Sequence record: OQ174507.1
Direction: 5' to 3' (one strand)
Origin: Escherichia phage REP8
Length of the DNA stretch: 64,000 nucleotides
Shown piece by piece: positions 2,749-58,018 of the stretch. The notes below the pieces were generated by a model. That model had not been told where the DNA came from, did not search any database, and saw only the letters and a program-made list of their open reading frames with translations. Each line of letters opens with the position of its first letter. Positions within the stretch are counted from its first letter, which is position 1. The position numbers and the translations under genes are program-made.

Positions 2749-4164
2749 ATGAGCGAATTATTTATACATGCGCACCTTCATGCAGGTCGAACTGAAAATG
2801 GTGCTGTAAACCATACTTCATCAATGTCTGCTCTTGTGGACTTTTACAAAGCTGCTGGTTCTAGCCGTAGCAATGTAGAAATCTTACCAGACTTGTTCTA
2901 CAAAGCTTTGCATGAAGATGTTGATGTTGCAGTTCGTATTTTACTGCATATGCGAGATGTACGAGAAGGTATGGGTGAGCGTAAAGCTTTCCGAACTGTT
3001 TTACTTCAAGCGATTGAAGATAAAGTTTTAGAGTCTACGCAGGTTCTTCGCATTATGGATAAGATTGCAGAACTTGGTCGTTTTGATGACTTCAAAATCT
3101 TCGTAGGTACTCGTTTCGAGACAGATGCCTTCAAACATTTAGAAGCAGCATTACTAGACCCTGCAACAGCAGGTTTAGCAGCTAAGTGGTTACCACGAGT
3201 AAAACCACGTCACAAACAGTTTGTAAAACGTTTCTGCAAGTTTGCAAACTTGAGTGAGAAAGAGTACCGCACACTGCTGTCTGCACTATCTGATACAGTT
3301 GAGCAAAAAATCTCTGCTAATGAGTTTGGTAAGATTGACTACAGTAAGATTCCTTCACTTGCTGCTGCACGTTACCAAAAACTGTTTAACCGTAAAGATG
3401 GAGAGCGATACAAAGCTTACATCGAGTCCTTATCAAATGGTGAGACTAAGATTAACGCTGGTGCTGTTTACCCATACGATGTGATTAAATCTGTCAAGTA
3501 TGGTAATGCAGATGTTGCTAATGAGCAGTGGAAAGCACTACCAAACTGGATGGTAGAAGGTGAAAACATCTTGTGTATGACTGATGTTTCAAGCTCAATG
3601 TCTTGGGTGAATCTTGGCTCAATTACTGCCCTTGATATTGGTGTATCACTTGCCTTGTATGTAGCAGAACGCAATACAGGTTGCTTTAAGAACGAGTTGA
3701 TGGTTTATTCAACAAACCCTCACTTCATCGAACTGAGTGGTGATTTACGAAACCGTCATCGTCAGGTGATGCGACACGTTGAATATGGCTCAACTAACTT
3801 ACAAGCAGCTTTTGACCGTATTCTTGAGATAGGTAAAAGAAACAACTTGACTCAGGAAGATATGCCAAGTAAGCTTATCATCTTCTCCGATATGGAGTTC
3901 AATCAGGTTGATGGTGCTAACGGTCGTACAAACTTTGAAGCAATTCAGAGTAAGTACAAAAAAGCTGGATATGAGATGCCACAACTGGTATTCTGGTATT
4001 TAGCAAACCGTAATGGTACTTGCGAAGTATCTGTTAAGGATAACGGTGTAGCAATGGTATCTGGTTTCTCTCCAGCCACTTTAAAAGCTCTGCTTGGTGG
4101 TGAGAAGTTTGACCCAACCAGTGTAATGCTCAAAGCAGTAATGATTGACCGTTATATCTGGTAA
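2749..4164 (+). CDS. vWA domain protein (MIDAS motif), possibly Ro60/TROVE-like
   Basis: 471 aa; DVSSSMS matches the DxSxS MIDAS motif of vWA domains; TROVE assignment is from memory only. Confidence 0.45.
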   Translation: MSELFIHAHLHAGRTENGAVNHTSSMSALVDFYKAAGSSRSNVEILPDLFYKALHEDVDVAVRILLHMRDVREGMGERKAFRTVLLQAIEDKVLESTQVLRIMDKIAELGRFDDFKIFVGTRFETDAFKHLEAALLDPATAGLAAKWLPRVKPRHKQFVKRFCKFANLSEKEYRTLLSALSDTVEQKISANEFGKIDYSKIPSLAAARYQKLFNRKDGERYKAYIESLSNGETKINAGAVYPYDVIKSVKYGNADVANEQWKALPNWMVEGENILCMTDVSSSMSWVNLGSITALDIGVSLALYVAERNTGCFKNELMVYSTNPHFIELSGDLRNRHRQVMRHVEYGSTNLQAAFDRILEIGKRNNLTQEDMPSKLIIFSDMEFNQVDGANGRTNFEAIQSKYKKAGYEMPQLVFWYLANRNGTCEVSVKDNGVAMVSGFSPATLKALLGGEKFDPTSVMLKAVMIDRYIW

Positions 4165-4183
4165 AAAGTTTTAAAAAGGGTAT

Positions 4184-4212
4184 TGACAATGTGTTTAATA
4201 CCCTTTAATATG
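4184..4212 (+). promoter_or_regulatory. sigma70-like promoter overlapped by an 8 bp inverted repeat (possible operator)
   Basis: TTGACA, 17 bp spacer, TAATAT; AGGGTATT/AATACCCT inverted repeat spans the -35 box and spacer. Confidence 0.5.
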
Positions 4213-4274
4213 TTCTACATAGAAACGAAATGAGAGCTTTTCTAAGATACTGAAAAATATTTTAAAAAAGTTCT

Positions 4275-4304
4275 TGACAATCACTAAAAAATAATGTTAA
4301 AGTG
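4275..4304 (+). promoter_or_regulatory. sigma70-like promoter (weaker -10) upstream of the tRNA array
   Basis: TTGACA, 17-18 bp spacer, TTAAAG/TAAAGT. Confidence 0.35.
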
Positions 4305-4329
4305 GTTACATAGAGTTTGAAAAGTTTAT

Positions 4330-4406
4330 CTCTGTTTAGCTCAGCTTGGTAGAGCGTTCCGTTTGGGGCGGTAAGGCCGGAGGTTCAAGTCCTCCAACAG
4401 AGACCA
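4330..4406 (+). tRNA. tRNA-Pro (anticodon TGG)
   Basis: acceptor CTCTGTT/AACAGAG, T-arm GGAGG-TTCAAGT-CCTCC, anticodon loop TTTGGGG, CCA encoded. Confidence 0.6.
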
Positions 4407-4413
4407 AATTAAT

Positions 4414-4491
4414 GTTCCAGTAGACAAAATGGTAAAGTCACCACTCTTTCAAAGTGGATATCTGAGGGTTCAAATCCCTTCTGGAACGCCA
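4414..4491 (+). tRNA. tRNA-Glu (anticodon TTC)
   Basis: acceptor GTTCCAG/CTGGAAC, anticodon stem CCACT/AGTGG with loop CTTTCAA, CCA encoded. Confidence 0.6.
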
Positions 4492-4582
4492 GTTTTGACA
4501 GAAGACCAATTACAGCAAACTTAATCTACTCATCTGACAAGAAATCGGACAAAGAAGATATTTGGTCTGGTCATTAAGAATT

Positions 4583-4656
4583 GCGGGTATAGAGAAAGGG
4601 CGTCTCACATGTCTCATTAGCATGGTATCGGCAGGTTCGACTCCTGCACCCGCCTC
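4583..4656 (+). tRNA. tRNA-Met (anticodon CAT)
   Basis: anticodon stem CATGT/GCATG with loop CTCATTA; T-arm GCAGG-TTCGACT-CCTGC; acceptor register uncertain. Confidence 0.5.
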
Positions 4657-4742
4657 CAAATTTACAGAAGACCGTTTACAGCAACATTTATTAAATTTTT
4701 AGCGGAAAAAATTGAAAGATACGGTCTGGTAATACTAAATAT

Positions 4743-4816
4743 GGTTAGGAAGCACATAAGGTATGTGCGGTCGCCTGTTAAGCGAATGGCACAGGGTTCG
4801 AATCCCTGACTAACCG
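4743..4816 (+). tRNA. tRNA-Asn (anticodon GTT)
   Basis: D-stem GCAC/GTGC, anticodon loop CTGTTAA, T-arm CAGGG-TTCGAAT-CCCTG; no CCA encoded. Confidence 0.55.
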
Positions 4817-4827
4817 CAAATTTAAAT

Positions 4828-4915
4828 GTGTCGTTATCCCGTAGATGGTAGCGGTGGGGACTGTAAATCCCTTGTCATTGAGACTCGGTAGGTTCGACTC
4901 CTACACGGCACACCA
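4828..4915 (+). tRNA. tRNA-Tyr (anticodon GTA), long variable arm
   Basis: 88 nt; acceptor GTGTCGT/ACGGCAC, anticodon stem GGGGA/TCCCT with loop CTGTAAA, CCA encoded. Confidence 0.55.
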
Positions 4916-4920
4916 ATAAA

Positions 4921-5006
4921 GGTTATGTAGTTTAATTTGGTTAAAATACTTCCACGTAAAAGGATATTGGGAGATGATGTGAGTTCAAGTCTCATCGTAG
5001 CCGCCA
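4921..5006 (+). tRNA. tRNA-like gene, anticodon arm unresolved
   Basis: 86 nt; good acceptor GGTTATG/CGTAGCC, T-arm GTGAG-TTCAAGT-CTCAT and CCA, but no canonical 5 bp/7 nt anticodon stem-loop found by hand. Confidence 0.35.
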
Positions 5007-5158
5007 ATTTTGAGAGGGCTATTTAGAACCTCCCTTAAAGGGTTCTTACGAGTATCCTTTAAAGGAGCAGAAGACCAAATTCAGCAAGTTACTTAAAATT
5101 TCAAGCCAATTCAATTTTGAAAAATTTAAAACTTGGTCTGGCTCAACAAATTTACAGA

Positions 5159-5283
5159 AGACCGTTTACAGCAAAACTTAAACAATCTATTTCTCGGTAA
5201 AGAAAAGGAGAAGGTTCGATTCCTTCACTCGGCAGATGTCGAGTTGGTGTAATGGTAGCACTTAAGATGATAAACAACGGTCT
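5159..5283 (+). ncRNA. circularly permuted tRNA-like module closed by an 8 bp stem (Y-RNA-like candidate)
   Basis: order is T-arm GAAGG-TTCGATT-CCTTC, acceptor 3' strand ACTCGGC, AGAT, acceptor 5' strand GTCGAGT, D-arm-like GGTGTAATGGTAGCAC; flanked by AGACCGTT (5159-5166) / AACGGTCT (5276-5283). Confidence 0.35.
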
Positions 5284-5286
5284 GGT

Positions 5287-5430
5287 AATTATCTTTGTAG
5301 ATAAGTTATTAAGCTTACCTGTGAGTATGCGACCACAAAGGGTGAAAGGGTAAATTCTAGATTTAAACCCAACAAGGCACATCGCTACAGACCTTAAGCA
5401 AGTCTGGGTAGCTTATCTACAAAGATAATT
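5287..5430 (+). repeat. structured element closed by a perfect 19 bp inverted repeat
   Basis: AATTATCTTTGTAGATAAG (5287-5305) pairs with CTTATCTACAAAGATAATT (5412-5430); ~106 nt interior holds sub-hairpins. Confidence 0.55.
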
Positions 5431-5434
5431 TAAT

Positions 5435-5510
5435 GGAAGTGTAGCAGAATGGTGATGCGGCAGACTTTTAATCTGACAGGCGATGGGTTCGAATCCCTCC
5501 ACTTCTACCA
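5435..5510 (+). tRNA. tRNA-Lys (anticodon TTT)
   Basis: acceptor GGAAGTG/CACTTCT, anticodon stem CAGA/TCTG with loop CTTTTAA, CCA encoded. Confidence 0.55.
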
Positions 5511-5514
5511 AAAT

Positions 5515-5590
5515 GGTTCAGTCGCAGATAAGGTAATGCAAGGGTCTCATAAGCCCTATGAATGTGGGTTCGATTCCCATCTGAACCTCC
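5515..5590 (+). tRNA. tRNA-Met or Ile2 (anticodon CAT)
   Basis: acceptor GGTTCAG/CTGAACC, anticodon stem AGGGT/GCCCT with loop CTCATAA, CCA encoded; 1-72 paired so not a bacterial initiator. Confidence 0.55.
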
Positions 5591-5593
5591 AAA

Positions 5594-5669
5594 GCTGTGA
5601 AAGCACATATGGATGTGCATTCGGCTGATAACCGAAAGGCAGAAGGTTCGAATCCTTCTCACAGTACCA
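5594..5669 (+). tRNA. tRNA-Ile (anticodon GAT)
   Basis: D-stem GCAC/GTGC, anticodon stem TTCGG/CCGAA with loop CTGATAA, T-arm GAAGG-TTCGAAT-CCTTC, CCA encoded. Confidence 0.65.
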
Positions 5670-5684
5670 ATTTCAATAAAGTTG

Positions 5685-5713
5685 TTGACATTGAGATGTG
5701 ACCACTTTATAGT
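5685..5713 (+). promoter_or_regulatory. sigma70-like promoter inside the tRNA array
   Basis: TTGACA, 17 bp spacer, TATAGT. Confidence 0.5.
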
Positions 5714-5917
5714 AACCTTAGTTTTCGTTGCGTAGCGTCTATTTTGCAAATTTAAAATAAATGCAAACGACAATGTTTTTCTGGCAGTAGCTTGATAGGC
5801 TAAACACCAGTGAGGTCTTCCAACCCCTCATCAAAGAATTTGGCGTACTAGCCCACGGTATGATTAATAAGGTGGGCATCTTTAAGGGCTTTCTAAGAGA
5901 GTCTTTAAAGATAATTA

Positions 5918-5999
5918 CGGGGCGTATCTCAGCTGTCTTCTAAACAGCCGTTAATCGAGTAAGTGGAGTATGCGGGTTCGAGTCCTGCCGCCTCGACCA
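5918..5999 (+). tRNA. atypical tRNA-like gene with Arg-type anticodon loop (TCT)
   Basis: 82 nt; acceptor CGGGGCG/CGCCTCG, perfect hairpin GCTGT-CTTCTAA-ACAGC, T-arm and CCA present, but only ~5 nt where the D-arm should be. Confidence 0.35.
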
Positions 6000-6238
6000 A
6001 TTTAGTTAGCAGATTACTTAGACGACCTTAGCGGGTCTTCCTGTAGGGAGGTGGTCTGTATCTCATGTTTTCCAGAACATGTAAATAATCTGAGAAGGGG
6101 CTTTACAGTGTTGAGATAATACGGTAAGCTTCGAATTATAGTATGGGACGATGTTAAGACTCTAAGGCATGAGCAACGGCTTCCAACACCGTTTCAAAGG
6201 GGTTCAACTCCTCCGTCACATGCCAAAGTCTTATTAGG

Positions 6239-6326
6239 GGTAGGTAGCGGCTAATGGTAGCCAAACTGTCTTGAAAACAGTTGCCACTGTAGAGATACGG
6301 TGAGGGTTCGACTCCTTTACTTACCG
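6239..6326 (+). tRNA. tRNA-Ser (anticodon TGA), long variable arm
   Basis: 88 nt; acceptor GGTAGGT/ACTTACC, anticodon stem ACTGT/ACAGT with loop CTTGAAA. Confidence 0.55.
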
Positions 6327-6483
6327 CCTAATAAGATTTAAAGCCAAGCTTCATTCGGATGTTGCTTTGGTATACCGCGTGTATTGTTGTACACATTGAT
6401 AAAACACCTAGTAGGTGTCACGGAGAAGAGATAATATCAAGCTCTCCAAAGGTTCTAGTCACCGGATTAAACAAGACTATGCA

Positions 6484-6505
6484 AAGACCTTTTTAGGTCT
6501 TTTTA
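6484..6505 (+). terminator. rho-independent terminator-like hairpin inside the tRNA array
   Basis: AGACC-TTTTTA-GGTCT followed by TTTTT. Confidence 0.4.
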
Positions 6506-6583
6506 GAGGGCTTCTAAGGTTATTACAGCTTGTTGTGGAACCTTGTTGCTTAGGTTCTTAGAAGTTCTCTAAAAAGACTTAAT

Positions 6584-6661
6584 GGGAGATTGACGGTAAT
6601 TGGTAAACCTATCTCGCTTAGAACGAGATGTTTGAGGGTTCGAATCCCTTGTCTCCTACCA
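6584..6661 (+). tRNA. tRNA with anticodon TAG (Leu by anticodon; short variable region)
   Basis: acceptor GGGAGAT/GTCTCCT, anticodon stem TCTCG/CGAGA with loop CTTAGAA, A73, CCA encoded. Confidence 0.45.
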
Positions 6662-6668
6662 AATTAAT

Positions 6669-6744
6669 GCAGGTGTAGCAAAATGGTTATGCGGCTGACT
6701 CTTAATCAGTAAGACGATGGGTTCAATTCCCTCCACCTGTACCA
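6669..6744 (+). tRNA. tRNA-Lys (anticodon CTT)
   Basis: acceptor GCAGGTG/CACCTGT, anticodon stem GCTGA/TCAGT with loop CTCTTAA, CCA encoded. Confidence 0.55.
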
Positions 6745-6750
6745 GACATT

Positions 6751-6826
6751 GGGGATGTAGTTTACATGGTTAAAACATAAGTTTTGCAAACTTAAGTACA
6801 GGGTTCAATTCCCTGCTTCTCCACCA
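6751..6826 (+). tRNA. tRNA-Ala (anticodon TGC)
   Basis: D-stem GTTT/AAAC, anticodon stem TAAGT/ACTTA with loop TTTGCAA, T-arm CAGGG-TTCAATT-CCCTG, CCA encoded. Confidence 0.6.
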
Positions 6827-6832
6827 ATTAGT

Positions 6833-6907
6833 GCATCCATAGTTTAAACGGGAAAATTACAGTCTTCCAAACTGAGGTTGAGGGTTCGATTCCCTCTGGA
6901 TGCTCCA
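6833..6907 (+). tRNA. tRNA-Gly (anticodon TCC)
   Basis: acceptor GCATCCA/TGGATGC, anticodon loop CTTCCAA, T-arm GAGGG-TTCGATT-CCCTC, CCA encoded. Confidence 0.55.
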
Positions 6908-6913
6908 AATAAT

Positions 6914-6990
6914 GCTGCTTTCGTATAATTGGCTATTACACATCCCTTGTAAGGATGGAAATGCAGGTTCGAGTCCTGTGAGCAGCACCA
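6914..6990 (+). tRNA. tRNA-Thr (anticodon TGT)
   Basis: acceptor GCTGCTT/GAGCAGC, anticodon stem CATCC/GGATG with loop CTTGTAA, CCA encoded. Confidence 0.6.
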
Positions 6991-6992
6991 AT

Positions 6993-7080
6993 TCAGAGGT
7001 CAAGTGAAAGACCGCTGGTGTCAACTGAAGACCGTAACAAATTCCACGGAGTTGAGTTAGCGGCACAACTTCAGACCTCT
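6993..7080 (+). ncRNA. long imperfect hairpin (candidate small RNA or processing element)
   Basis: nested stems CAGAGGTC/GACCTCTG, CCGCT/AGCGG, CAACT/AGTTG, CCGT/ACGG; contains a GAAGACCGT motif. Confidence 0.35.
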
Positions 7081-7085
7081 TTCAC

Positions 7086-7160
7086 ACTCGCTTAGTTTAT
7101 ATGGTAAAACATCACCCTTACAAGATGAAGAAAAAGGTTCAAGTCCTTTAGTGAGTACCA
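7086..7160 (+). tRNA. tRNA-Val (anticodon TAC)
   Basis: acceptor ACTCGCT/AGTGAGT, D-stem GTTT/AAAC, anticodon loop CTTACAA, CCA encoded. Confidence 0.5.
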
Positions 7161-7161
7161 T

Positions 7162-7239
7162 GTTCCAGTATCCCAATTGGCAGAGGATGCAAGCTCAAAC
7201 CTTGTATTAGTGACGGTTCGAATCCGTCTTGGAACACCA
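7162..7239 (+). tRNA. tRNA with anticodon CAA (Leu by anticodon; short variable region)
   Basis: acceptor GTTCCAG/TTGGAAC, anticodon stem GCAAG/CTTGT with loop CTCAAAC, T-arm GACGG-TTCGAAT-CCGTC, A73, CCA encoded. Confidence 0.45.
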
Positions 7240-7258
7240 ATTTTAAGAGGCTATTTAG

Positions 7259-7816
7259 ATGAGATATTTGAAGTATGCTTCATGGATTTTCCTAGCTTTA
7301 CTAGAGCCATTTGCAGCAACCCTAGCAGTCATCTTAGCACCTTTCGTAGTTCCATTCTACAGTGAGAAGAAAGGGCATCTACCTTTTGGATTCAGATGGA
7401 TGGAGACCTATGACAACCCGATTGATGGTGACAAAGGCCACGTTGAGAGATGGGCTAAGATTAGAAAGATTGGTAAGCTCGGTGTTTATATGCAGAGAGT
7501 TGGGTGGCTCTGGAGAAACAAAGCTTATAACTTCTCTTACCATGTATTAGGAAGAGATGTAAAAGATGTTACTAAGTGGAAAGGTAATATCAACGTAAGT
7601 TCTGACCCTGAAGATAATCAGACTGGTTATCTCCTAATGTGGAACAGTAATGCTTGGGGATTATTCGCTTTTATCCCATCAATTAAAGTCTTTGGTAAAC
7701 AGTTTTACTGGAGAATTTATATTGGATGGAAACTAAAAAGCGTTGTCCCAGAAGAAAGAGCATTCTCAAGGGAAAGAGTTATGTTGGCATTCTTTATTCA
7801 TCCACTGAGAAAGTAA
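7259..7816 (+). CDS. hypothetical membrane protein encoded inside the tRNA array
   Basis: 185 aa; AAGAGG RBS 8 nt upstream of ATG; hydrophobic N-terminus (WIFLALLEPFAATLAVILAPFVV). Confidence 0.45.
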   Translation: MRYLKYASWIFLALLEPFAATLAVILAPFVVPFYSEKKGHLPFGFRWMETYDNPIDGDKGHVERWAKIRKIGKLGVYMQRVGWLWRNKAYNFSYHVLGRDVKDVTKWKGNINVSSDPEDNQTGYLLMWNSNAWGLFAFIPSIKVFGKQFYWRIYIGWKLKSVVPEERAFSRERVMLAFFIHPLRK

Positions 7817-7824
7817 AGATTTAA

Positions 7825-7900
7825 AGGGGATTAGTTTACAAGGTTAAAACCTCGGTCTTTGAAATCGAAGAAGTTGGTTCAATTCCAACATCCCCCGCCA
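7825..7900 (+). tRNA. tRNA-Gln (anticodon TTG)
   Basis: anticodon stem TCGGT/ATCGA with loop CTTTGAA, T-arm GTTGG-TTCAATT-CCAAC, CCA encoded. Confidence 0.5.
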
Positions 7901-7902
7901 AT

Positions 7903-7981
7903 GCTCCATTACTCCAATTGGCAGAGAGGCCAGACTTAAAATCTGTGTTATGTATCGGTTCGAATCCGATATGGAGTACCA
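7903..7981 (+). tRNA. tRNA with anticodon TAA (Leu by anticodon)
   Basis: acceptor GCTCCAT/ATGGAGT, anticodon stem CAGA/TCTG with loop CTTAAAA, A73, CCA encoded. Confidence 0.45.
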
Positions 7982-7986
7982 AATTT

Positions 7987-8062
7987 AGCGGTATAGCATA
8001 ACTGGCAATGCAACAGTCTCTGAAGCTGTCCTATTAAGGTTCAAATCCTTATGCCGCTGCCA
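7987..8062 (+). tRNA. tRNA-Gln (anticodon CTG)
   Basis: acceptor AGCGGTA/TGCCGCT, D-stem GCAT/ATGC, anticodon stem ACAGT/GCTGT with loop CTCTGAA, CCA encoded. Confidence 0.55.
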
Positions 8063-8093
8063 CTTCTAAGGATTCTTGCGAGAGTCCTTAAAT

Positions 8094-8169
8094 GTGGCCT
8101 TATCATAAATGGTAATGACCCATGCTGTGAACATGGTCTATACGGGTTCAAATCCCGTAGGTCACCCCA
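8094..8169 (+). tRNA. tRNA-His (anticodon GTG)
   Basis: acceptor GTGGCCT/AGGTCAC, anticodon stem CCATG/CATGG with loop CTGTGAA, C73, CCA encoded. Confidence 0.6.
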
Positions 8170-8174
8170 ATTTA

Positions 8175-8251
8175 TAGTCCAAGTAGCTTATATGGTTAAA
8201 GCGCGTGTCTGAAAAACATGAGAAGAGGGTTCAAATCCCACTGGACTACCA
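8175..8251 (+). tRNA. tRNA-Phe (anticodon GAA)
   Basis: acceptor TAGTCCA/TGGACTA, anticodon stem CGTGT/ACATG with loop CTGAAAA; 3' end register uncertain. Confidence 0.5.
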
Positions 8252-8267
8252 ATTTCAAAGGTGCTTA

Positions 8268-9002
8268 ATGAAAGAGATGACAGAACAAGGTAAGGAGATT
8301 TTTAATCTCTTAAAAACCGGTAAAGGGTTTTCTAATCCCCTTATTACTGGTGCAGCAGTCCTCGGTGGAACCGTAGCTGCTTCTACATCACTTGTAAGCT
8401 CTATTAGTTCTGTAACAGACCCTACAATGAAGGAGAAACTTGTTACTGCTGGACTTACAACAGTCCTTCTAAACAGCTTTACAACAAGCCTTACAAGCAC
8501 TACAGCAACTACTAAGACCCTAACAGACTACGGTCAAAAGTCTATTGATGAGTTTTCATCACGTATGCAGGTAGCAAAGGGATACTCTAATGTTATGGGT
8601 GCAGCAGGAGAACAAGTTGGTTGTACACCATTCAGTGGTATTATGGGTGTTGCTACAGAGTATGGTCAAAAAGCTATTGACATGATGAACAGTACACTAG
8701 ATAGTGTTAATGGTGTGTTAAGTGACTTACAAGATGCTATTGATAAGGGTCTTGATACTGTTTCTGATTTAGCTGAGCAAGCTGTTAGTAAGATTAATGA
8801 AGGTATTTCGAAGATTACAGCTTATGCAGATGAAGTTGTGCAGATGATTGAAGAAGAAGCTGCCCTTATTGCAGAGTACCTTAAAACGAATATCAATGGG
8901 TTCTTAGCAGGTATCTTACCAGACTGGTTTGATGATGCTTGTAAAACTGGTGTGATTGAAACTATTGCAACACCAGAAATGAAGAGCGCATTACAGAAAT
9001 AA
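8268..9002 (+). CDS. hypothetical protein
   Basis: ORF-track frame 8205..9002 begins inside tRNA-Phe; in-frame ATG at 8268 with AAAGG upstream is the more likely start. Confidence 0.4.
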   Translation: MKEMTEQGKEIFNLLKTGKGFSNPLITGAAVLGGTVAASTSLVSSISSVTDPTMKEKLVTAGLTTVLLNSFTTSLTSTTATTKTLTDYGQKSIDEFSSRMQVAKGYSNVMGAAGEQVGCTPFSGIMGVATEYGQKAIDMMNSTLDSVNGVLSDLQDAIDKGLDTVSDLAEQAVSKINEGISKITAYADEVVQMIEEEAALIAEYLKTNINGFLAGILPDWFDDACKTGVIETIATPEMKSALQK

Positions 9003-9004
9003 AT

Positions 9005-9097
9005 GGAAGATTAACCCTAAAAGGTAAGGGAGCAGTTTGCTAAACTGCCAGTAGCTGAGAAATCGGTGTACCAGTTCAAGTCTGGTATCTTCCTCCA
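9005..9097 (+). tRNA. tRNA-Ser (anticodon GCT), long variable arm
   Basis: 93 nt; perfect acceptor GGAAGAT/ATCTTCC, anticodon stem GCAGT/ACTGC with loop TTGCTAA, CCA encoded. Confidence 0.6.
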
Positions 9098-9101
9098 ATT
9101 T

Positions 9102-9177
9102 GAATCCGTGACAGAAATGGCTATGTGCCTGTCTGCAAAACAGGTTTATAAGGGTTCGAGTCCCTTCGGATTCTCCA
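9102..9177 (+). tRNA. tRNA-Cys (anticodon GCA)
   Basis: perfect acceptor GAATCCG/CGGATTC, anticodon stem CCTGT/ACAGG with loop CTGCAAA, CCA encoded. Confidence 0.65.
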
Positions 9178-20884: not shown

Positions 20885-28921
<8,037 letters not shown>

Positions 28922-28923
28922 TA

Positions 28924-30096
28924 ATGGCAGTAGGTGAAATTCAAATTAGTGCCTTGCCTCAAGCAGCCTTACCAATTGACCTTAGTGATATCTTCCATCT
29001 TAAGCAGGGTATTGAGGATAAGAGATGCACTCTTGAGCAATTACTTGCTCCACACTCAAGCCTAAGAAATAACCCACATGGTGTTACTAAAACACAAATT
29101 GGTTTAGATAATGTTATTAATGCTCTTCAGTTAGTCGCTGCAAATAACTTATCAGATATTGTTAATGTAGCTGAGGCAAGAGCAAATCTACAGATTATGT
29201 CTTCAGAAGAGGTTAATAGTCTTGTTCAACAGCATATTAATGATAAGAGTAACCCGCACAATACAACTAAGGCACAGGTAGGGTTGAGTAATGTTCAGAA
29301 CTGGACAACATCTAACCTTTATAACGAGGATGCAGATAAGTATGCTACAGCAAGAGCAGTAAATAACTTGTACAAGGCTGTTCAGGCTTCCTATCCAGTA
29401 GGTACTATCCATCTTTCCATGAACTCTGCAAACCCTTCTACATATTTAATTTGTGGAGGAACTTGGGAGTTGGTTTCAAAAGGTAGGGCATTGGTTGGTT
29501 ATGCCTCTGATGCAAGACCAGCAGGTTCTGTATTTGGTGCTTCAACTGTCACTTTGTCAGTTAATAATATGCCTCAACACTCCCACTCTGTATCACTTAG
29601 TGGTGGTGGCCACACTCATAATGCAACTGTGTCAATCTCAGCTTTTGACTATGGAACTAAGACTACCAACTCTTTTGACTATGGAACAAAAGCTACTAAC
29701 ACAACTGGCAACCATACACACAATGTATCAGGTAACACAAGCACAAATGGTACTCACAACCATGATGTGTATCCTAGAGAAAATGATGGTACTGGTAATG
29801 CTGTAGCTGACTCTGATGGTGGTGGAGCATGGAGAACATCAAGAACTTCTAGTGATGGTGCACACTCACACAGTTTTAACGTCACATCTGGTGCATCAGG
29901 TGACCACAGCCACACGGTTGGTATTGGTGCTCACAGTCATACTGTTGGTATTGGCTCACATACACACAATGGTACTGTGGCAGTTTCTTCTTCTGAGCAT
30001 ACACATAGTGGTAACACAAATAGTGTTGGTGGAGGTCAGGCTGTGAATATTGAGCAGCCATCCTTCGTCCTGTATGTATGGCAGAGAACAGCTTAA
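28924..30096 (+). CDS. tail fibre protein with His-x-His-rich C-terminal domain
   Basis: 390 aa; repeated HSHS/HTHN/GAHSHTVGIG motifs in the C-terminal third; ends ...WQRTA; terminator downstream. Confidence 0.55.
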   Translation: MAVGEIQISALPQAALPIDLSDIFHLKQGIEDKRCTLEQLLAPHSSLRNNPHGVTKTQIGLDNVINALQLVAANNLSDIVNVAEARANLQIMSSEEVNSLVQQHINDKSNPHNTTKAQVGLSNVQNWTTSNLYNEDADKYATARAVNNLYKAVQASYPVGTIHLSMNSANPSTYLICGGTWELVSKGRALVGYASDARPAGSVFGASTVTLSVNNMPQHSHSVSLSGGGHTHNATVSISAFDYGTKTTNSFDYGTKATNTTGNHTHNVSGNTSTNGTHNHDVYPRENDGTGNAVADSDGGGAWRTSRTSSDGAHSHSFNVTSGASGDHSHTVGIGAHSHTVGIGSHTHNGTVAVSSSEHTHSGNTNSVGGGQAVNIEQPSFVLYVWQRTA

Positions 30097-30105
30097 TTTC
30101 TTTAC

Positions 30106-30126
30106 AGGGGCTTGATAGCCCCTTTT
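30106..30126 (+). terminator. rho-independent terminator
   Basis: GGGGCT-TGAT-AGCCCC followed by TTTT. Confidence 0.5.
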
Positions 30127-30142
30127 AAGAGGAAAATTTATA

Positions 30143-32500
30143 ATGGCAGATTACAAGTTGAGTGAATTAAACTCAATCGATACAATCCGTTCAGATGACC
30201 TTCTTCATGTCAGGGTTAAAAAGAGACCTGAAATGCTAGGTGATGAAGACCGTCGAATGACCTATCAAGATTTCTTAGCATCTTTTAAGCTTGAAAGATT
30301 TGTTCAGATTGCTGGTAGTACTATGACGGGTGACTTAGGGATTGTTAAGTTACTTTATGGTGGTAAGGCAGTCTTTGACCCAACAGGCTCTTCTGAGGTT
30401 ACTATTGGGGATGTTTTAAAGACTTTTAAAATCAACGCAAATGGTCTTAGACTAACTATTGCAGATGCTTCAAGGTCAGCAACTGTTTATCATACTCTGA
30501 ATAAACCAAGTCCTAATGAACTTGGGATGAGAACTAATGAAGAGAATGATGCAAGATATGCAAGACTTGCTGTTACAAACTCATTCCAAGCTAAACAGAG
30601 TGTCGTAGCAAATGGTGAGCAGTTGACACTGAAGACCCCTGCGGGTGCAAGTGAGGCATACTCCGCTATTGTAGGTCGAAATGCCAATAATGATAAAACT
30701 TGGGCTGTTGGTAATCTAACTCAAGGAAGTCTTGATGTTCATCTCGAAAATAGCAGAGGTTCAAGAATCACTCTAGGTGCAATTGTGTCTGTTAATAAGG
30801 CTCTTGCTATTACTGGTCAGGTTAAACCCTCTGATTGGTCTAACTTAGATGCTAGATACTTTACTCAGACAGCAGCTAATCAGAGATTTGCACAGTTAAC
30901 TACGAATAACACTTTCACAGGCGCTAATACATTTAGGGATATGCGTGTTATCTCGAATTCTGCTGCTGTTACACTACAATGTGCATCAGCAAATGAATCA
31001 TTTTATCTACTTGGAAAAGATTATCAAGGTGGTAACTCATGGTTTATTGGTAGAGGTAGTTCTGGAACAGAGGTTACACTCTATAACTATGTTAGTGATA
31101 CATCTTTAGTGTTGTCTGAGACGGCAAGATTTAATAAGTCTGTAGAAATCACTGGTCAAGTACAACCTTCTAATTGGACTAACATTGATTCAAGGTATGT
31201 TCCGAGTTCTCTGACAAGAGTTCTTGCAAGGACTGATTTAACTAATACTTTCACTAAAGCACAGATTATCTCTACTAGCAACGGCAACCTTTTTAGACTA
31301 CAGACAACAGTACAAGATTCTGAACTCTACATGTCTGCACATAATGCTGATGGGAACAGGAGATGGTGGTTGGGTATTGGTGGTGCTGGTCAAACCACAG
31401 TGGCACTTACCAATGATGTAACAAAAAAGTCAATCAATCTTGGTACTAATTTAGATGTGAATACACATGTGAATATTGTTGGGCAAGTAAGACCAAGTGA
31501 TTTCTCTAACTTAGACGATAGATACTACACCCAATCTGCCGCAAACTCTAGGTATATGCTTGCAGGTTATACTGGTGGAGCTTCAGAAGCAGATGGTAGT
31601 GATGGTGTTGCATGGAATGCAAAAACAGGATTATACACTGTCTCCAACGCAGCTAAGACGTATACTTACCTTGTGTATAACATGTTTTCGGGGGATGGTT
31701 CCACACCATCTGCACAATTAAAATTTCAGTTTCAAAATGGTGGGATGTGGTATAGGACATCAAGAGATGCCCATGGCTTCGAAGATAACTGGTCTAAAGT
31801 TTACACGGAAGCACAAAAACCAAAACCTTCAGATATTGGTGCATACTCTAAAGCAGAAACTGACCAGAAGATTGCACAGGCAATTAGTGACTCTACAGAC
31901 CTTAACAAAATCTATCCAGTAGGCATTGTAACGTGGTTTAACAGTAATGTTGACCCTAATACAGCACTTCCTGGGTTAACTTGGACGTACCTGAACAATG
32001 GTGTTGGTAGAACTATCAGAATTGCAGCAGCAAACGGTTCAGATGTTGCTACAACTGGTGGTTCAGATTCTGTGACGTTAGCTGTTGGTAACTTACCATC
32101 ACACACCCATAGTTTCTCTGCTACCACTTCATCTTTTGATTATGGTACGAAGGGAACTAACAGTACGGGTGGGCACACTCACTCTGGTAGTGGTTCTACT
32201 AGCACAAATGGTGAGCACACTCACTACATTGAGGCGTGGAATGGTACTGGTAGAGGTGGTGATAAGATGTCATCATATGCCGTATCATACAGGACGGGTG
32301 GGAGTTATACTAATGCAGCAGGGAACCACAGTCATACTTTCTCTTTTGGGACTAGCGGTGCTGGCGACCATTCCCACTCTGTAGGCATTGGTGCTCACAG
32401 CCACACAGTTAGTGGTAACACTGGTGGTACAGGTTCTGGTTCAGCATTTAGTGTTACTAACCAGTTCTACAAGCTAATGGCTTGGGTGAGAACTGCTTAA
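30143..32500 (+). CDS. long tail fibre protein with His-x-His-rich C-terminal domain
   Basis: 785 aa; C-terminus repeats the HxH motifs of 28924..30096 (GGHTHSGSG...GAHSHTVSG) and ends ...WVRTA. Confidence 0.55.
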
Positions 32501-32578
32501 TCCCTTGTTGACTGATTGTTAAGATGGTGTTAATATTCTTTAGGGTATTCTCACCATCTTGGCTGATGAGGTGATTAA

Positions 32579-32773
32579 ATGCCTACAATCCTAGCAATTC
32601 TTCTAAAAAATCTAGGTAGCTTCTTCTGGAAACTCATTTTATCCCTTCTAAGTGAATACATGATTGAGAAAGTGTTCTTTAAGCTTGCAAGATACCTTGC
32701 GAGTAAAACAGACACACCTATTGATGATGAGTTCGTAGATAACTTAGAAAAAGCTTTTAAGGGGGAGAAGTAA
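32579..32773 (+). CDS. small membrane protein (possible lysis-related)
   Basis: 64 aa, hydrophobic N-terminus, located after tail fibres. Confidence 0.3.
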   Translation: MPTILAILLKNLGSFFWKLILSLLSEYMIEKVFFKLARYLASKTDTPIDDEFVDNLEKAFKGEK

Positions 32774-33145
32774 ATGAAGTGGTTAGAGGAAGCTTTTAAA
32801 AATAATATTGGTGCAATTGTAGTTGGTATTTTTAGTGTTATCGGGATGTATACCACGATGCAAGTGTCAAGTGGTAAACAAGAGGTGTCTGTCAAAACAA
32901 AGTTACAACAGTTGGATAATTACACAAGTAGCAACTATTCAGCTATTCGTGATTTACAGTCTGACATGAGACTTATTCAGTTAGGGATGGAGAACCAGAA
33001 AGTTCAGTTAGAGAATGTTAAGGGTGAAAACGCAAAACTTACCAAAACTCTTGATAAATTCTCTGACAGTGTGAACAATCTGGCTCAATCAGTATCAGCC
33101 CTCCAAGCTATTACTGAAAAGAACACAAAGAATACTGAAAAATAA
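32774..33145 (+). CDS. membrane-anchored coiled-coil protein (possible lysis-related)
   Basis: 123 aa, one predicted TM helix then coiled coil. Confidence 0.3.
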   Translation: MKWLEEAFKNNIGAIVVGIFSVIGMYTTMQVSSGKQEVSVKTKLQQLDNYTSSNYSAIRDLQSDMRLIQLGMENQKVQLENVKGENAKLTKTLDKFSDSVNNLAQSVSALQAITEKNTKNTEK

Positions 33146-33151
33146 AGTTTA

Positions 33152-33180
33152 AGGCTCCTTTTTACGGGAGCCTTTTTTGT
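33152..33180. terminator. bidirectional terminator between convergent genes
   Basis: GGCTCC-TTTTTACG-GGAGCC flanked by T-run on plus and A-run (T-run on minus). Confidence 0.55.
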
Positions 33181-33181
33181 T

Positions 33182-34081
33182 TTATTTACCTACTGACAAA
33201 GGTGCTTCAATCTTTCCTGCATGTTGATAGTTGCTAATACCACCGATAAAGTCACTTGCAGTAAGATGTTTTAAGTCACTTAAAGTGTTAAGCTGTACAC
33301 CAATCTCAAAAGTGGGTGCATGGAACTCTTCATTGTTCATCAGTTCATAAACCTGTTTCATATGGTTCTGATAAATCTGAGTATCTCCAAAGACACCTAT
33401 CAAGTACCGTGGAGTGTATCCAGTCATCTTACAAAGAACTTCTAAGATGAAACCATAAGACGCAATATTAAACGGAAGTCCTAAAAAGGTGTCTACTGAA
33501 CGCTGATACCATTGCAAATCCACTTCACCCTCGTTAGTGATGTAAATCTGAAACAGAACATGACAAGGTGCTAAAGCCATCGAGTTGGCTGCAATATCTG
33601 CTGCATTCCAAGCATTAACAAGCATGTAACGGTCTGTGATATCACCTTTCATCTTCGTTACTAAGGTCTCTAACTGGTCTACAACACAACCGTTATGACC
33701 TTCAAAGTTTCTCCACTGAACCCCGTAGATTCTCCCACCTGCATCTTCTAACCAGTCTTGTTCAGAAGAATAATTAGAGCTTAACCAGCGTTTAAAATCA
33801 TCTGACCAGATTGTCCAACGTTCTCCGTCATTTTCACCCCAAGTACGATAACGGAGTTCACCCAGCTTATTCTCGCCATTCAGGAACCATAAAGCTTCCC
33901 CAATAACTTGCCGTGTAAACACCTGTTTAGATGTTAAGAGCGGGAAACCAGTTCGCATATCAAAACGAAACTGAGGTGGAGCAAATGCAGAGATGACATC
34001 TCCAGTTCGTGTAGTACGCAGTTCACCAACTGATAAAACATGGTTCAGGATATTTTTGTAACTCAAATCAGCTTGTGACAT
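33182..34081 (-). CDS. thyA: thymidylate synthase
   Basis: 299 aa; active-site region MALAPCHVLFQIY and LPFNIASYGFIL...GDTQIY. Confidence 0.75.
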   Translation of the reverse strand: MSQADLSYKNILNHVLSVGELRTTRTGDVISAFAPPQFRFDMRTGFPLLTSKQVFTRQVIGEALWFLNGENKLGELRYRTWGENDGERWTIWSDDFKRWLSSNYSSEQDWLEDAGGRIYGVQWRNFEGHNGCVVDQLETLVTKMKGDITDRYMLVNAWNAADIAANSMALAPCHVLFQIYITNEGEVDLQWYQRSVDTFLGLPFNIASYGFILEVLCKMTGYTPRYLIGVFGDTQIYQNHMKQVYELMNNEEFHAPTFEIGVQLNTLSDLKHLTASDFIGGISNYQHAGKIEAPLSVGK

Positions 34082-36755: not shown

Positions 36756-36876
36756 TTGGCAGATTTTTTATAAGGCTACTGCCATCCTTCCATACATTAC
36801 CTAACCAGACCAGACCTTACCTTACCAAACACCACCCCACCTCATTAAAAGACCCTCTTTAAAGACCTTTTAAAAA
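36756..36876 (+). repeat. intergenic repeated element, copy 1
   Basis: 46 bp core TTGGCAGATTTTTTATAAGGCTACTGCCATCCTTCCATACATTACC, then C/A-rich tract and AAAGACCCTCTTTAAAGACCTTTTAAAAA. Confidence 0.6.
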
Positions 36877-38010: not shown

Positions 38011-38147
38011 TTGGCAGATTTTTTTATAAGGCTACTGCCATCCTTCCATACATTACCAAACAGTACCGTGCCACAACACACCATACCCAACTCCACCTAA
38101 CCCTACCACACCTTATTAAAAGACCCTCCTAAAGACCTTTTAAAAAA
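38011..38147 (+). repeat. intergenic repeated element, copy 2
   Basis: same core as copy 1 (one extra T in the T-run), followed by C/A-rich tracts and AAAGACCCTCCTAAAGACCTTTTAAAAA. Confidence 0.6.
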
Positions 38148-54997: not shown

Positions 54998-55262
54998 AGA
55001 GACCATGAAAGATTTAATAGAAAAACATGAGCGACCTATATACTTGCTCCACAAGCCTCGGAAAACGATGTACTATGTGAGTAGCACAGATATGATGATA
55101 AAACAAAATGATGACTCATGGGTTGCTGGTATCTCTTACATCTCTACAGCAGATGGTAAAATCTACGCAAGACCTTATGAGATGTTTAACAAAGAAAATT
55201 GGGAAGTTTTAGACAGAAAACAAGCCTTAGAAATGATAAAGAAAGGAGAAATCACGCTATGA
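54998..55262 (+). CDS. hypothetical small protein
   Basis: 88 aa from ATG 54998; ORF-track frame 54921..55262 overlaps the nrdA end. Confidence 0.3.
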
Positions 55263-56332
55263 TTAACCAGCACCCAATCTTTTTAGGTGGTGAGAGAAAG
55301 ACATTTGACTCACTTAATAAACACTACCCAAAAATCTTTGAGCTTTATAAACAACAAAAGGCACAAGACTGGTCAGAAGATGAGTTTCCTTTTGAACAAT
55401 CACGTCTTGATTTTGAGAGTGTGCCAGCATCAATGTCAGGTGTAATGCTTGAGATTCTTAAGTGGCAGTGGGAAGCAGATACCCAAGTTGCTAAGAGCTT
55501 GGCATTTGCCTTTGCACCATTTATCTCTGATGACATCTATGCAACTGCAATTATGAAGCAGTCTGAGATTGAAAACCTACATGCTCTTACTTACTCAGAG
55601 ATTGTAAGGCAATGTATTAAAAACCCTGAAACAATCTTAGATGAGATTAACCAGAATGTTGCTGTGCAAGACCGATTAAAAACTGTGAATCGTGTTCTTG
55701 AAGAATTACTGGATGAAGGCATAAACTATCGCCTGAGTTATGTGCGTGATTCGCTTCTGGACAAAGACCCTTTACACTTCCATAAAGTGATTCTAAAAGG
55801 TCTATTTGCAGTGACTGCACTGGAAGGTATATCTTTTATGGCATCCTTTGCATGTACTTTTGCACTTGATGCTCAAGATAAATTTCAGGGTATTGCTCAA
55901 GCTGTCCAGAAAATTATGCTTGACGAAATCCTTCACACTAAAATTGATATTGAAGTTTTAAAAGAAACTTTAAGAGATGATGAGTGGCAGAAAGCTTTTC
56001 AACAAATTCTTCCAGAGATTAAAGTAATCTTAGATGAAGTGGTTGAAAGTGAAGAGAAATGGTCGTATTATATCTTCTCCGAAGGACGTGCTGTAGTCGG
56101 CTTAAATACAAAGCTTCTTCATGAGTGGGTTTACTATAATGCTGCCCCACTGTATGATATGTTTGGCATTCCCAGAGATTTTGTAGCTCCTAAAGAACCA
56201 CCTTTGAAGTACATGATTAAGAAGATGGAAATTGATAAAGAGCAGAATGCTAATCAGGAGCAGCAGAACGGTGCGTACCTGTTGAATACTGTTGTAGATG
56301 ATTTGAATAGTGGATTTTTAGAGGTTCCTTAA
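55260..56332 (+). CDS. nrdB: ribonucleotide reductase class Ia beta subunit
   Basis: ~357 aa from ATG 55260 (MINQHP...); between nrdA and a glutaredoxin gene; ORF-track frame starts at 55199. Confidence 0.55.
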
Positions 56333-56574
56333 TGACTTATGTAATTTACTCCAAAACTGGATGCCCTCAGTGTGAGACTGCAAAGAATTTTGCAAAAGCT
56401 CGTGGTATTGACCATGTTGTGAGGATGTTAGGGCAGGATTATGAGCTATCAGAACTAATGGACATTGCACAGATGCCAGTTCGTCAGATGCCATTCATCA
56501 TGAAAACTGATGGACAAAACCTAAAACCTGTTGGGACGCTACAGAATTTTATGGCAGAGGTGAATAATGCTTAA
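56332..56574 (+). CDS. glutaredoxin/NrdH-like redoxin
   Basis: 80 aa; CPQC redox motif near N-terminus. Confidence 0.6.
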   Translation: MTYVIYSKTGCPQCETAKNFAKARGIDHVVRMLGQDYELSELMDIAQMPVRQMPFIMKTDGQNLKPVGTLQNFMAEVNNA

Positions 56575-56773
56575 ACGCCTTTGGGAAGGTTTGGTTGTTG
56601 ATGCACCAGCTATTGTGATTGGTATGCTTATTGTTAACCTATTTACTGACTTTGAACAAGGTTCGTTGTTTGGAGCCATGTTACTATGGGTTATCTTCGA
56701 AATATTAGAGATACAGTTAGGTATCACTGAAAAACTAAGAGAACTCTTTGCGAAGTTTTCTAAAAAGATTTAA
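56567..56773 (+). CDS. small membrane protein
   Basis: 68 aa, hydrophobic. Confidence 0.3.
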   Translation: MLKRLWEGLVVDAPAIVIGMLIVNLFTDFEQGSLFGAMLLWVIFEILEIQLGITEKLRELFAKFSKKI

Positions 56774-56777
56774 AATG

Positions 56778-56804
56778 AAAGGGTCTCTTCGGAGACCTTT
56801 TTAG
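56778..56804 (+). terminator. rho-independent terminator
   Basis: AAAGGGTCTC-TTCG-GAGACCTTT followed by TTAG. Confidence 0.5.
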
Positions 56805-56821
56805 AATGTAAAGGGGCAATA

Positions 56822-58018
56822 ATGAACAAAGTACAGATTATTAAAAAGAATGGCTCACTCGAAGAACCTGATATCAAAAAAGTTTTAACAGCAGTCACAA
56901 AGTCAGCTAATAGGGTTGGGTATAAAGAACTCCCGCCAGATGTTACCCAAGCTCTTGAGTCAGCATTTATGAGGGTTCTGGTAAAATCCACTAAGCAGAA
57001 TAATTTACTCGTTTCAGTAAATGATATTCACAGTATTGTTGAGGGTGCTTTGGCAGAAGTCAATCACGAGATTTATGAGTCTTACTCAACATATAGAAAT
57101 TACCGTAAAGAGGTTGCTCAAAACTGGGATGAACTCTACCAGAAGACTAAAGATACACTCTTCTTAGGTGACCGTGAAAATGCTAATTTTGACAGCAGTT
57201 TAATTTCTACGAAAGGTTCAATTATCCGTGGTTACCTGACTAAAGAAATCTTTAAACAGTATCATCTAACACCAGAGGAACTTGAAGCCATTGAGAAAGG
57301 CTTTGTCTATATCCATGATTTAAGAGACCTGATTTTTGGTGGTATTAACTGTTGCCTGTTTGACATTGGTAAAGTACTAAAAGGTGGCTTTGAAATGTCC
57401 GGCATTGAGTACTGTGAACCTAAATCTGTACTGTCAGCGTTGCAGGTTATTGGTGACGTAGTACTTTCAGCAACTGCACAGCAATTTGGTGGTTTTACTT
57501 TAGCAGAGATTGATAAGGTACTTGTACCGTATGCGAAGAAGTCTCTACGCTATCATGCTGAGAAAGCATCATCTTATGGTATCCCTAAAGAGCATTACCA
57601 CAATTATGTCATGGAGCAGCTACAGATTGAACTGACTCAAGGTTTCCAGTCGCTTGAAATGAAACTAAACACTGTACCTTGTAGTCGTGGGGATTTTGCA
57701 TTTACAACTTTGACATTCGGGTTACTTGACTCAGACATGTCTAATGAAGACAACCGACTGCAATACATGATTGCAAGTACTCTCCTAGATGTTCGTATGA
57801 ATGGACAAGGTAAGAGTAAGAAGCCTGTTGTATTCCCTAAACTGGTTTATATTTATGACCAGAAGAGACATAATGAGAATATCTGTCAAGGCCACCTGTA
57901 CAGTAAAGCTATAGAGTGTTGCTCTAAAGCGATGTATCCAGATTTCTTAAGTGTATCTGGTCATGGTGCTGTAGCAGAAGCTTTTGAGCGTTCTGGTAAG
58001 GTTATTTCACCGATGGGT
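56822..58018 (+). CDS. nrdD: anaerobic ribonucleotide reductase, exon 1
   Basis: ATP-cone-like N-terminus; ends ...ISPMG with T as last exon nucleotide; an in-frame TAA opens the intron. Confidence 0.65.

Follow-up and report, generated by a model that had tools for sequence, protein, structure and literature searches.

The window analysed here, a stretch of 64,000 nucleotides (nt) from Escherichia phage REP8 (OQ174507.1), is DNA of a Felix O1-like myophage of the genus Felixounavirus, REP9 type. It is 99.6–100 % identical over its whole length to Escherichia phage REP9 (Felixounavirus, Ounavirinae; 85.7 kb genome), and positions 28600–32600, which contain two tail fibre genes, are 100 % identical to Escherichia phages REP9 to REP12. 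Both fibre open reading frames (ORFs), termed F1 and F2, were found where a first-pass annotation made from the sequence alone had placed them (Table 1). Their assignment as fibre genes was supported by PHROGs (E=1e-135 for F1; 1274 bits over the full length for F2), by Pfam matches and by orthology and synteny with gp26 and gp27 of phage Bas63, which form a 430-Å short tail fibre (STF) and a 630-Å long tail fibre (LTF), respectively (PMC12609058). Alignments of the C-terminal parts show that both fibres end in a receptor-binding module whose structure was originally determined for T4 gp37 and which consists of a collar with an inserted needle.

Table 1. Coordinates of the tail fibre genes, their predicted parts and associated reading frames in the window (aa, amino acids; HxH, His-x-His motif)
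Feature	Position	Strand	Basis
LTF-platform protein, 100 aa, Bas63 gp25 ortholog, attachment point of long fibre	28619..28921	+	98 % identical to Bas63 gp25
Short tail fibre gene F1, 390 aa, Bas63 gp26 (STF) ortholog	28924..30096	+	ORF; phrog_2097 (tail fiber); 74.5 % full-length identity to gp26; same flanking genes
F1 collar domain, N-terminal part, about aa 146–218	29359..29577	+	Pfam Gp10_C; T4 gp10 C-domain matches
F1 ascending needle strand, HxH at aa 219, 230, 264 and 278, two FDYGTK boxes	29578..29763	+	phmmer alignment to 2XGF
F1 head, variable putative receptor-binding cassette, aa 281–313	29764..29862	+	Hypervariable in alignment of nine Felixounavirus STFs
F1 descending needle strand, HxH at aa 314, 328, 337, 346 and 359	29863..30006	+	2XGF alignment; protein alignment
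F1 C-terminal return to collar (…QPSFVLYVWQRTA) and stop codon	30007..30096	+	Terminal W-x-R-T-A; AlphaFold2 pLDDT 89
Long tail fibre gene F2, 785 aa, Bas63 gp27 (LTF) ortholog	30143..32500	+	ORF; phrog_4277 (tail fiber); 65.9 % full-length identity to gp27
F2 shaft repeats, three units	30792..31524	+	Direct repeat family D1; Pfam gp37_trimer PF20744, three stretches, E=2e-51
F2 gp37_C / Mu S-like domain, aa 483–585	31589..31897	+	Pfam PF12604, E=1.3e-17
F2 collar domain, N-terminal part, about aa 588–653	31904..32101	+	Gp10_C below cutoff; aligns to F1 collar
F2 T4-type needle and head cassette, aa 661–755; HxH 2 to 6, head aa 695–728	32123..32409	+	95 ungapped codons versus T4 gp37; 2XGF match
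F2 C-terminal return to collar and stop codon	32410..32500	+	Invariant across ten Felixounavirus LTFs
Alternate-frame ORF, artefact	29453..29806	+	+1 frame of F1; stop-free run not kept in relatives
Alternate-frame ORF, artefact	29816..30046	+	+1 frame of F1
Alternate-frame ORF, artefact	32085..32384	+	+1 frame of F2; interrupted in AYO145A and EC106, same cassette type

The N-terminal parts of the two proteins had been described as different, and BLASTP detected no significant similarity between them. In the N-terminal half of F1, the motif N-P-H-x-x-T-K-x-Q-[IV]-G-L-x-N-V can be read twice from the translation, 60 residues apart, at 29068–29121 and 29248–29301 (aa about 49–66 and 109–126). 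Pfam domains of F2 comprised three gp37_trimer repeats, gp37_C, a Phage_fiber repeat and a sub-cutoff collar match, and the segment assigned to gp37_C was also matched by phmmer to the Mu tail fibre protein S (8JU3, E=6.5e-18). The three gp37_trimer stretches correspond to the copies of a direct repeat (30792–30858, 31131–31197 and 31458–31524) with starts about 330 nt apart and 67–75 % identity, and this shaft region is mosaic among relatives. Both C-terminal parts are rich in HxH motifs, as the first-pass annotation had noted, with nine within residues 219–361 of F1 and six within residues 654–754 of F2.

The collar of T4 gp37, D10, is formed by residues 811–881 and 1010–1026 and carries the needle, D11 (882–1009), as an insertion; the needle consists of a stem (882–931 and 960–1009) and a tip (932–959) (PMC6957217). 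Seven irons are coordinated by HxH histidines along its axis (PMC6957217; PMC12609058). In phmmer searches, residues 651–764 of F2 matched residues 104–218 of the T4 tip structure 2XGF (E=9.5e-51) and residues 146–361 of F1 matched residues 18–227 (E=4e-28), the alignments covering needle and head in both cases. F1 was about 37–40 % identical to the T4 gp37 tip, and its ascending strand aligned to gp37 residues 883–931. The HxH motifs are divided between ascending and descending strands as four and five in F1, three and three in F2 and three and four in T4, with conserved spacings of 14, 9 and 9. All six motifs of F2 (aa 654, 678, 692, 729, 743 and 752) aligned with motifs of T4 (883, 915, 929, 966, 980 and 989, respectively), while seven of the nine in F1 were in register with the seven of T4 and the additional two, at 219 and 359, lie at the collar end of the needle, one on each strand. 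A collar of the gp10/gp11/gp12/gp37-D10 type precedes the needle in both proteins; in F1 it was detected as Gp10_C (PF21939, residues 154–265, 63.2 bits with a cutoff of 27) and matched the T4 gp10 C-domain chains 2FKK and 5HX2. Neither phmmer alignment to 2XGF reaches the terminus, where an aromatic-x-x-R-x-A motif is common to F1 (VWQRTA), F2 (AWVRTA) and T4 (YIVRLA, from the gp37 end …NYIVRLA). Across an alignment of 45 sequences, the W and R of the F1 terminus W-x-R-T-A were invariant.

The proposal that these HxH repeats form a metal-binding tip of T4 type is thus supported, as both C-termini match a structure in which the seven irons sit at HxH motifs. A further proposal, that the shared segment is a common folding tip, held in part: the module is common to both fibres, but it is not a self-folding tip, as it is predicted to be a collar into which needle and head are inserted and to which the chain end returns. 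Based on 2XGF and the Bas63 models, the chain would run out along the needle, form a small head and come back, with the last strand (…W-x-R-T-A) rejoining the collar. For every HxH motif, the three chains of the trimer would together contribute six histidines to the coordination of a single metal ion (iron in T4), giving a predicted stack of nine sites in F1 and six in F2 compared with seven in T4. These sites would rivet the six-stranded needle together, and the head at its far end would bind the receptor.

G, S, T, H or N account for 60–63 % of residues in both C-terminal parts and the two genes have minimal DNA similarity, which could mean that their likeness is compositional only, arising from two unrelated Gly/Ser/Thr/His-rich low-complexity tails with no common fold or ancestry. 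This is extremely improbable, as BLASTP with composition correction aligned F1 126–341 with F2 549–756 at 37 % identity (E=2e-30). The similarity exceeds histidine content, because the His-free collar segments remained significant (31 % identity, E=2e-7), as did the alignment after all His residues had been replaced by X (E=5e-5). Needle and head together scored 103 bits compared with 32.5 +/- 4.2 bits (maximum 47.4) in 200 shuffles, about 17 standard deviations above, and each C-terminus independently matched the same solved structure with its motifs in register. Low-complexity coincidence was rejected on the strength of the composition-corrected, His-masked and collar-only alignments together with the 2XGF matches. 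Alternatively, the module could derive from a recent duplication or gene conversion between F1 and F2 in this genome, in which case both fibres would have the same receptor specificity. Conversion does occur in the genus, as the two fibre genes of the Salmonella phage Mushroom have a 195-nt stretch spanning the head in common (85 % identity). The modules in the window, however, share just 51 nt at 76 % with a longest exact match of 14 nt, their heads are unrelated in sequence (protein alignment) and they contain nine and six HxH motifs; a recent intragenomic duplication is therefore highly unlikely, and the unrelated heads and near-absent DNA identity led to its rejection for this genome. Pairwise alignment hence bears out homology of the two C-termini at the protein level but not likeness at the DNA level. 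The combination of 37 % protein identity with almost no DNA identity indicates that the modules are old paralogs carrying different heads, with no recent duplication. The 'almost identical' termini of the first-pass annotation were an overstatement, as VLYVWQRTA (F1) and KLMAWVRTA (F2) have five of nine residues in common (L, W, R, T and A) and blastp-short over the last 26 residues returned no alignment. A catalytic or enzymatic function of the HxH arrays, for example in a lipopolysaccharide (LPS) hydrolase, in place of a structural riveting role has only the presence of metal-binding motifs in its favour. No enzyme families were matched in Pfam or PHROGs, and in the solved structure of the T4 homolog the irons lie buried along the three-fold axis, each fully coordinated by six histidines (PMC6957217). 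The probability of catalytic sites was consequently considered negligible and this explanation was rejected.

A different question is raised by the three alternate-frame ORFs, as +1 stop-free runs of up to 118 codons in F1 and 100 codons in F2 are long for a genome of about 40 % GC and could represent real, expressed overlapping genes. These runs coincide with a region depleted in codons with T at position 2, the proportion of which is 0.14–0.15 in the C-terminal parts and 0.23–0.27 in the N-terminal parts. A +1 stop requires such a codon, and so their depletion produces long open runs. The runs were broken or much shorter in relatives with an intact fibre frame, namely Mushroom (longest run 50 codons in F1 and 58 in F2), Alf5, AYO145A (67 in F2) and EC106 (58 in F2). 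Their translations are rich in L, V, M and T, mirror images of the G, S, T and H codons, and the ORFs are unannotated in every related record inspected. Overlapping genes, which retain only a very slight chance, were rejected on the basis of codon composition and loss of the runs in close relatives. The ORFs had already been called artefacts, and this holds, but their cause is the depletion of T at position 2 in a Gly/Ser/Thr/His/Asn-rich stretch and not, as had been supposed, repetitive His codons.

Part of the F2 module is similar to T4 at the DNA level. Positions 32123–32409 aligned without gaps to codons 898–992 of T4 gene 37 with 91.9 % nt and 91.6 % aa identity, the match extending from aa 661, just past the first HxH motif, to aa 756 at the sixth. 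Codon differences were ten synonymous and eight non-synonymous. Identity in the flanks was at the random level (33 % over 150 nt upstream and 26 % over 91 nt downstream). Ten tip residues of T4 gp37 at which alanine abolishes plaque formation (PMC6957217) are all kept in F2 (H929, H931, I933, N937, G938, G940, G942, G943, S947 and Y949). Four of the five substitutions in the tip subdomain (932–959) are at positions listed as tolerant (V941R, N944D, I951V and N959Y; PMC6957217), while the fifth, A955T, is outside the published residue lists examined. By these alignments, the F2 head is of T4 type.

The head part of the cassette was present in 42 phage records, about half of them T4 or T4-like Tequatroviruses and the rest Felixounaviruses. 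The latter included NBEco005 (100 % identity), REP5 to REP7 (97 %) and VpaE1 (95 %) as well as L27, AYO145A, phiWec172/174/177, IME338 and EC106. Twelve copies of the 287-nt cassette, from two unrelated lineages, were compared; all were ungapped and 77–96 % identical. The T4 copy was nearer to those of the Felixounaviruses VpaE1 (93.0 %) and the window (92.0 %) than to those of the Tequatroviruses W143 (89.5 %) and F26 (86.1 %). This suggests that Tequatrovirus and Felixounavirus share a cassette pool, and transfer between these lineages has probably occurred more than once. No match to the T4-type cassette was found in 5,426 complete E. coli genomes, indicating that prophages are no obvious reservoir. 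Experiments with VpaE1 identified the truncated LPS core displayed by E. coli B strains as its receptor (PMC4690856). As the VpaE1 cassette is 95 % identical to that of F2, the F2 head most likely binds, by analogy, the glucose-terminated truncated LPS core of E. coli B-type strains, with OmpC as a possible additional ligand. Since the F1 and F2 heads differ, we infer that the phage presents two receptor specificities.

The fibre loci of ten relatives and T4 were compared and the ends of BLAST similarity were mapped. In F2, similarity was lost at 32152–32374 in Shy (about aa 670 to 744), 32227–32373 in KhF1 (about aa 695 to 744) and 32200–32359 in VpaE1_ev035 (about aa 686 to 739), and all three had 95–96 % DNA identity to the window from about 32373 to 32600 despite their different heads. 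In F1, similarity to Alf5 was lost at 29690–29911 (about aa 256 to 330). The flanks of these intervals were 90–96 % identical. Each interval begins at or just past an FDYGTK box or the last ascending HxH motif and ends at the second descending HxH motif, the replaced segment comprising the head and the adjoining needle rungs. Protein alignments of both fibres likewise contained invariant collars and boxes around hypervariable heads, with similarity starting and stopping at conserved His boxes that flank the variable segment. In F1, DNA similarity to gene 37 of several T4-like phages is confined to a box at 29897–29968. In the Mushroom locus, the F1 gene occupies 856–2022 and the F2 gene 2073–4592, and the shared head lies at gene nt 751–945 and 2164–2358, respectively. 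This shared head indicates that paralogous boxes can mediate exchange between F1 and F2 within one genome. The suggestion that the module is a recombination hot spot for host-range switching was borne out by the breaks in similarity at FDYGTK and HxH boxes, in relatives and in T4, and by the Mushroom head. By these comparisons, the head is in both genes an exchangeable cassette with conserved FDYGTK and HxH boxes at its limits. Given the pattern observed, the conserved FDYGTK and GxHxH boxes beside the head would act as homology arms, allowing heads to move among related phages, from one fibre gene to the other in a single genome, and across the divide between Felixounavirus and T4-like phages.

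Folding of T4 gp37 requires gp38 and gp57A (PMC6957217). Searches for both by tblastn in the window and the whole REP9 genome gave best E values of 0.19 or worse, although a distant homolog of gp57A could be missed as it is a short coiled coil. The gp38 gene is directly after gene 37 in T4, F26, EP01 and W143, which are all of the T4-like cassette carriers examined, and the REP9 annotation lists only tape-measure chaperones. The corresponding place after F2 is occupied by two small genes, at 32579–32773 (64 aa) and 32774–33145 (123 aa), the products of which are annotated as transmembrane or holin proteins in related records; for the 123-aa protein, only weak coiled-coil-type Pfam matches were detected, all below cutoffs. 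In T4, gp38 can be bypassed by mutations in gene 37 that extend a coiled-coil segment. By analogy, it is plausible that an upstream trimer-nucleating element in the Felix-type shaft substitutes for gp38 and gp57A. A single pool of the virulent lineages Tequatrovirus and Felixounavirus, from which the cassette folds and trimerises in Felixounavirus without a gp38- or gp57A-like chaperone, is a tentative and rather unlikely proposition. If true, trimer nucleation falls to the other parts of the Felix-type fibre or to a factor so far unrecognised, for example a small downstream protein, and a chaperone-independent scaffold for T4-type receptor-binding tips exists.

Several observations weigh against the interpretation of the two fibres as carrying gp37-type tips, or against parts of it. 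Trimerisation and metal binding of F1 and F2 are predictions by homology. The F2 collar scored 25.6 bits with Gp10_C, slightly below the cutoff of 27. An AlphaFold2 monomer model of F1 146–390, built with the 45-sequence alignment, had a predicted local distance difference test score (pLDDT) of 65.6 and a predicted template modelling score of 0.32 and was confident in the collar only; pLDDT was 46–69 in the needle and 89 in the last C-terminal block, so that the model is uninformative for the HxH geometry of the needle. With this model, the best Foldseek match in the PDB was 2FKK (T4 gp10 C-domain), a weak match (E=0.035) accompanied by long beta-hairpin pore toxins; 2XGF was not among the matches, none of which reached E≤0.001. 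Where a BLAST alignment ends is only a proxy for a recombination breakpoint, and the cassette tree, built from 287 nt without bootstrap, is loosely held. T4 and VpaE1 differ in their use of K-12 despite having the same head type (PMC4690856), and the receptor of F2 is assigned by analogy. As gp37 needs gp38 and gp57A and neither was detected in REP9, assembly here must also differ somehow. Overall, the probability that the locus encodes two Felix-type baseplate fibres, one short and one long, each with a gp37-type metal-stapled receptor-binding tip, was estimated as about 90 %.

The surrounding genes are consistent with baseplate fibres of Felixounavirus. Upstream lie genes for a Baseplate_J protein, a DUF2612-like wedge protein and the 100-aa protein, and these neighbours are 97–98 % identical to Bas63 gp23 (wedge 2), gp24 (wedge 1) and gp25 (LTF platform). 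The last of these was named the LTF platform, and described as homologous to T4 gp9, in the cryo-electron microscopy (cryo-EM) study of Bas63 (PMC12609058). The two small downstream genes are 95–98 % identical to gp28 and gp29, extending the synteny from gp23 to gp29, with the fibre genes placed after wedge 2, wedge 1 and the LTF platform. A promoter and terminator scan of 28500–33300 detected no enrichment compared with shuffles, and only one element, a bidirectional terminator at 33151–33174, looks real. It is a GC-rich hairpin that has T-runs on both strands and probably terminates transcription in both directions, between the end of the late structural operon and a convergently transcribed thymidylate synthase gene.

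Other features were noted elsewhere in the window. Two direct copies of a sequence of about 135 nt, 80 % identical in a gapped alignment (36756–36876 and 38011–38146), are intergenic in the minus-strand early region according to the REP9 annotation. Coordinates transferred from the same annotation (REP9 55162–60009) place an array of about 25 tRNA genes, including tRNA-Ser(TGA) and tRNA-His(GTG), at about 4330–9177; the array is interrupted by two small ORFs and contains an exact 28-nt repeat (4657–4684 and 5147–5174). Among the related records, PV390658.1 (Escherichia phage vB_EcoM_P54) has the taxonomy line Straboviridae, Tequatrovirus; with a genome of 88 kb and a fibre locus that runs collinear with Felixounavirus (83–87 % identity to the window), it is probably misclassified.

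The tip is a correctly recognised feature but one that is already published for Felixounavirus, as reported for VpaE1 in 2015 and for Bas63 in 2025. In the VpaE1 study, the C-termini of both fibre proteins, gp74 and gp75, were found to be homologous to the T4 gp37 adhesin (PMC4690856). The LTF cassette of vB_EcoM-VpaE1 has 95.5 % DNA identity to that of the window, but the authors described the overall relationship of the proteins to gp37 as no more than distant, and the near-identical cassette was not pointed out (PMC4690856). In the Bas63 structure, obtained by cryo-EM, both fibres comprise a collar, a needle with HxH motifs (seven in the STF, six in the LTF) and a head, as in T4 gp37, and the tips are highly variable across the genus (PMC12609058). 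Bas63 (Escherichia phage JohannRWettstein) and the window phage belong to the same genus and have the same gene order, with neighbouring baseplate genes 95–98 % identical and six HxH motifs in each LTF. The fibres, in contrast, are their most divergent genes; the Bas63 STF has seven HxH motifs where that of the window has nine, and the heads are unlike, the LTF head being of T4 type in the window and not in Bas63. Outside Felixounavirus, the Shigella phage Sf14 (Ounavirinae, genus Mooglevirus) has two fibres, gp52 and gp53, that are folded back on the tail, the longer having a T4 gp37-like distal tip, and no Mu fibre chaperone homologs were found (PMC11821841). DNA similarity of matching Shigella and Citrobacter phages to the module of the window is partial, at about 72–73 %.

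The T4 gp37 tip (PDB 2XGF; domains D10 and D11) has the same split collar, out-and-back HxH needle and head. It differs from F2 in having a seventh HxH motif (HGH 998) and one further DLGTK unit, and from F1 in having no counterpart of the HxH motifs at 219 and 359 near the collar. At the DNA level, neither the collars nor the remaining parts of the two fibres are related to T4. The T4 fibre is an assembly of gp34, gp35, gp36 and gp37, whereas each fibre of the window is a single gene product, and no gp38 gene lies downstream as it does after gene 37. His-box mediated swapping of adhesins in T-even gene 37/38 was reportedly described by Tétart, Desplats and Krisch in 1998 (J Mol Biol). In that system, conserved GxHxH boxes also flank variable receptor-binding segments and mark the ends of exchange; the exchange proposed here differs in including another subfamily, Ounavirinae, and two fibre genes of one genome.

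To these reports, the present analysis adds the nine-motif STF needle, a precise delimitation of the cassettes, the 92 % match in DNA between the LTF cassette and T4 gene 37 with all critical receptor residues kept, the head common to both Mushroom fibre genes, and no detectable gp38 or gp57A homologs. No literature on phage REP9 was found, and its record labels both fibre genes just 'tail fiber protein' and the platform protein hypothetical; applying the published Felixounavirus fibre design therefore gives a better annotation than these labels. The feature is an ordinary property of Felixounavirus fibres and leaves current understanding unchanged. Its practical use lies in host-range prediction and engineering, as the heads are discrete cassettes and that of F2 is near the T4 head, the receptor contacts of which have been mapped per residue.

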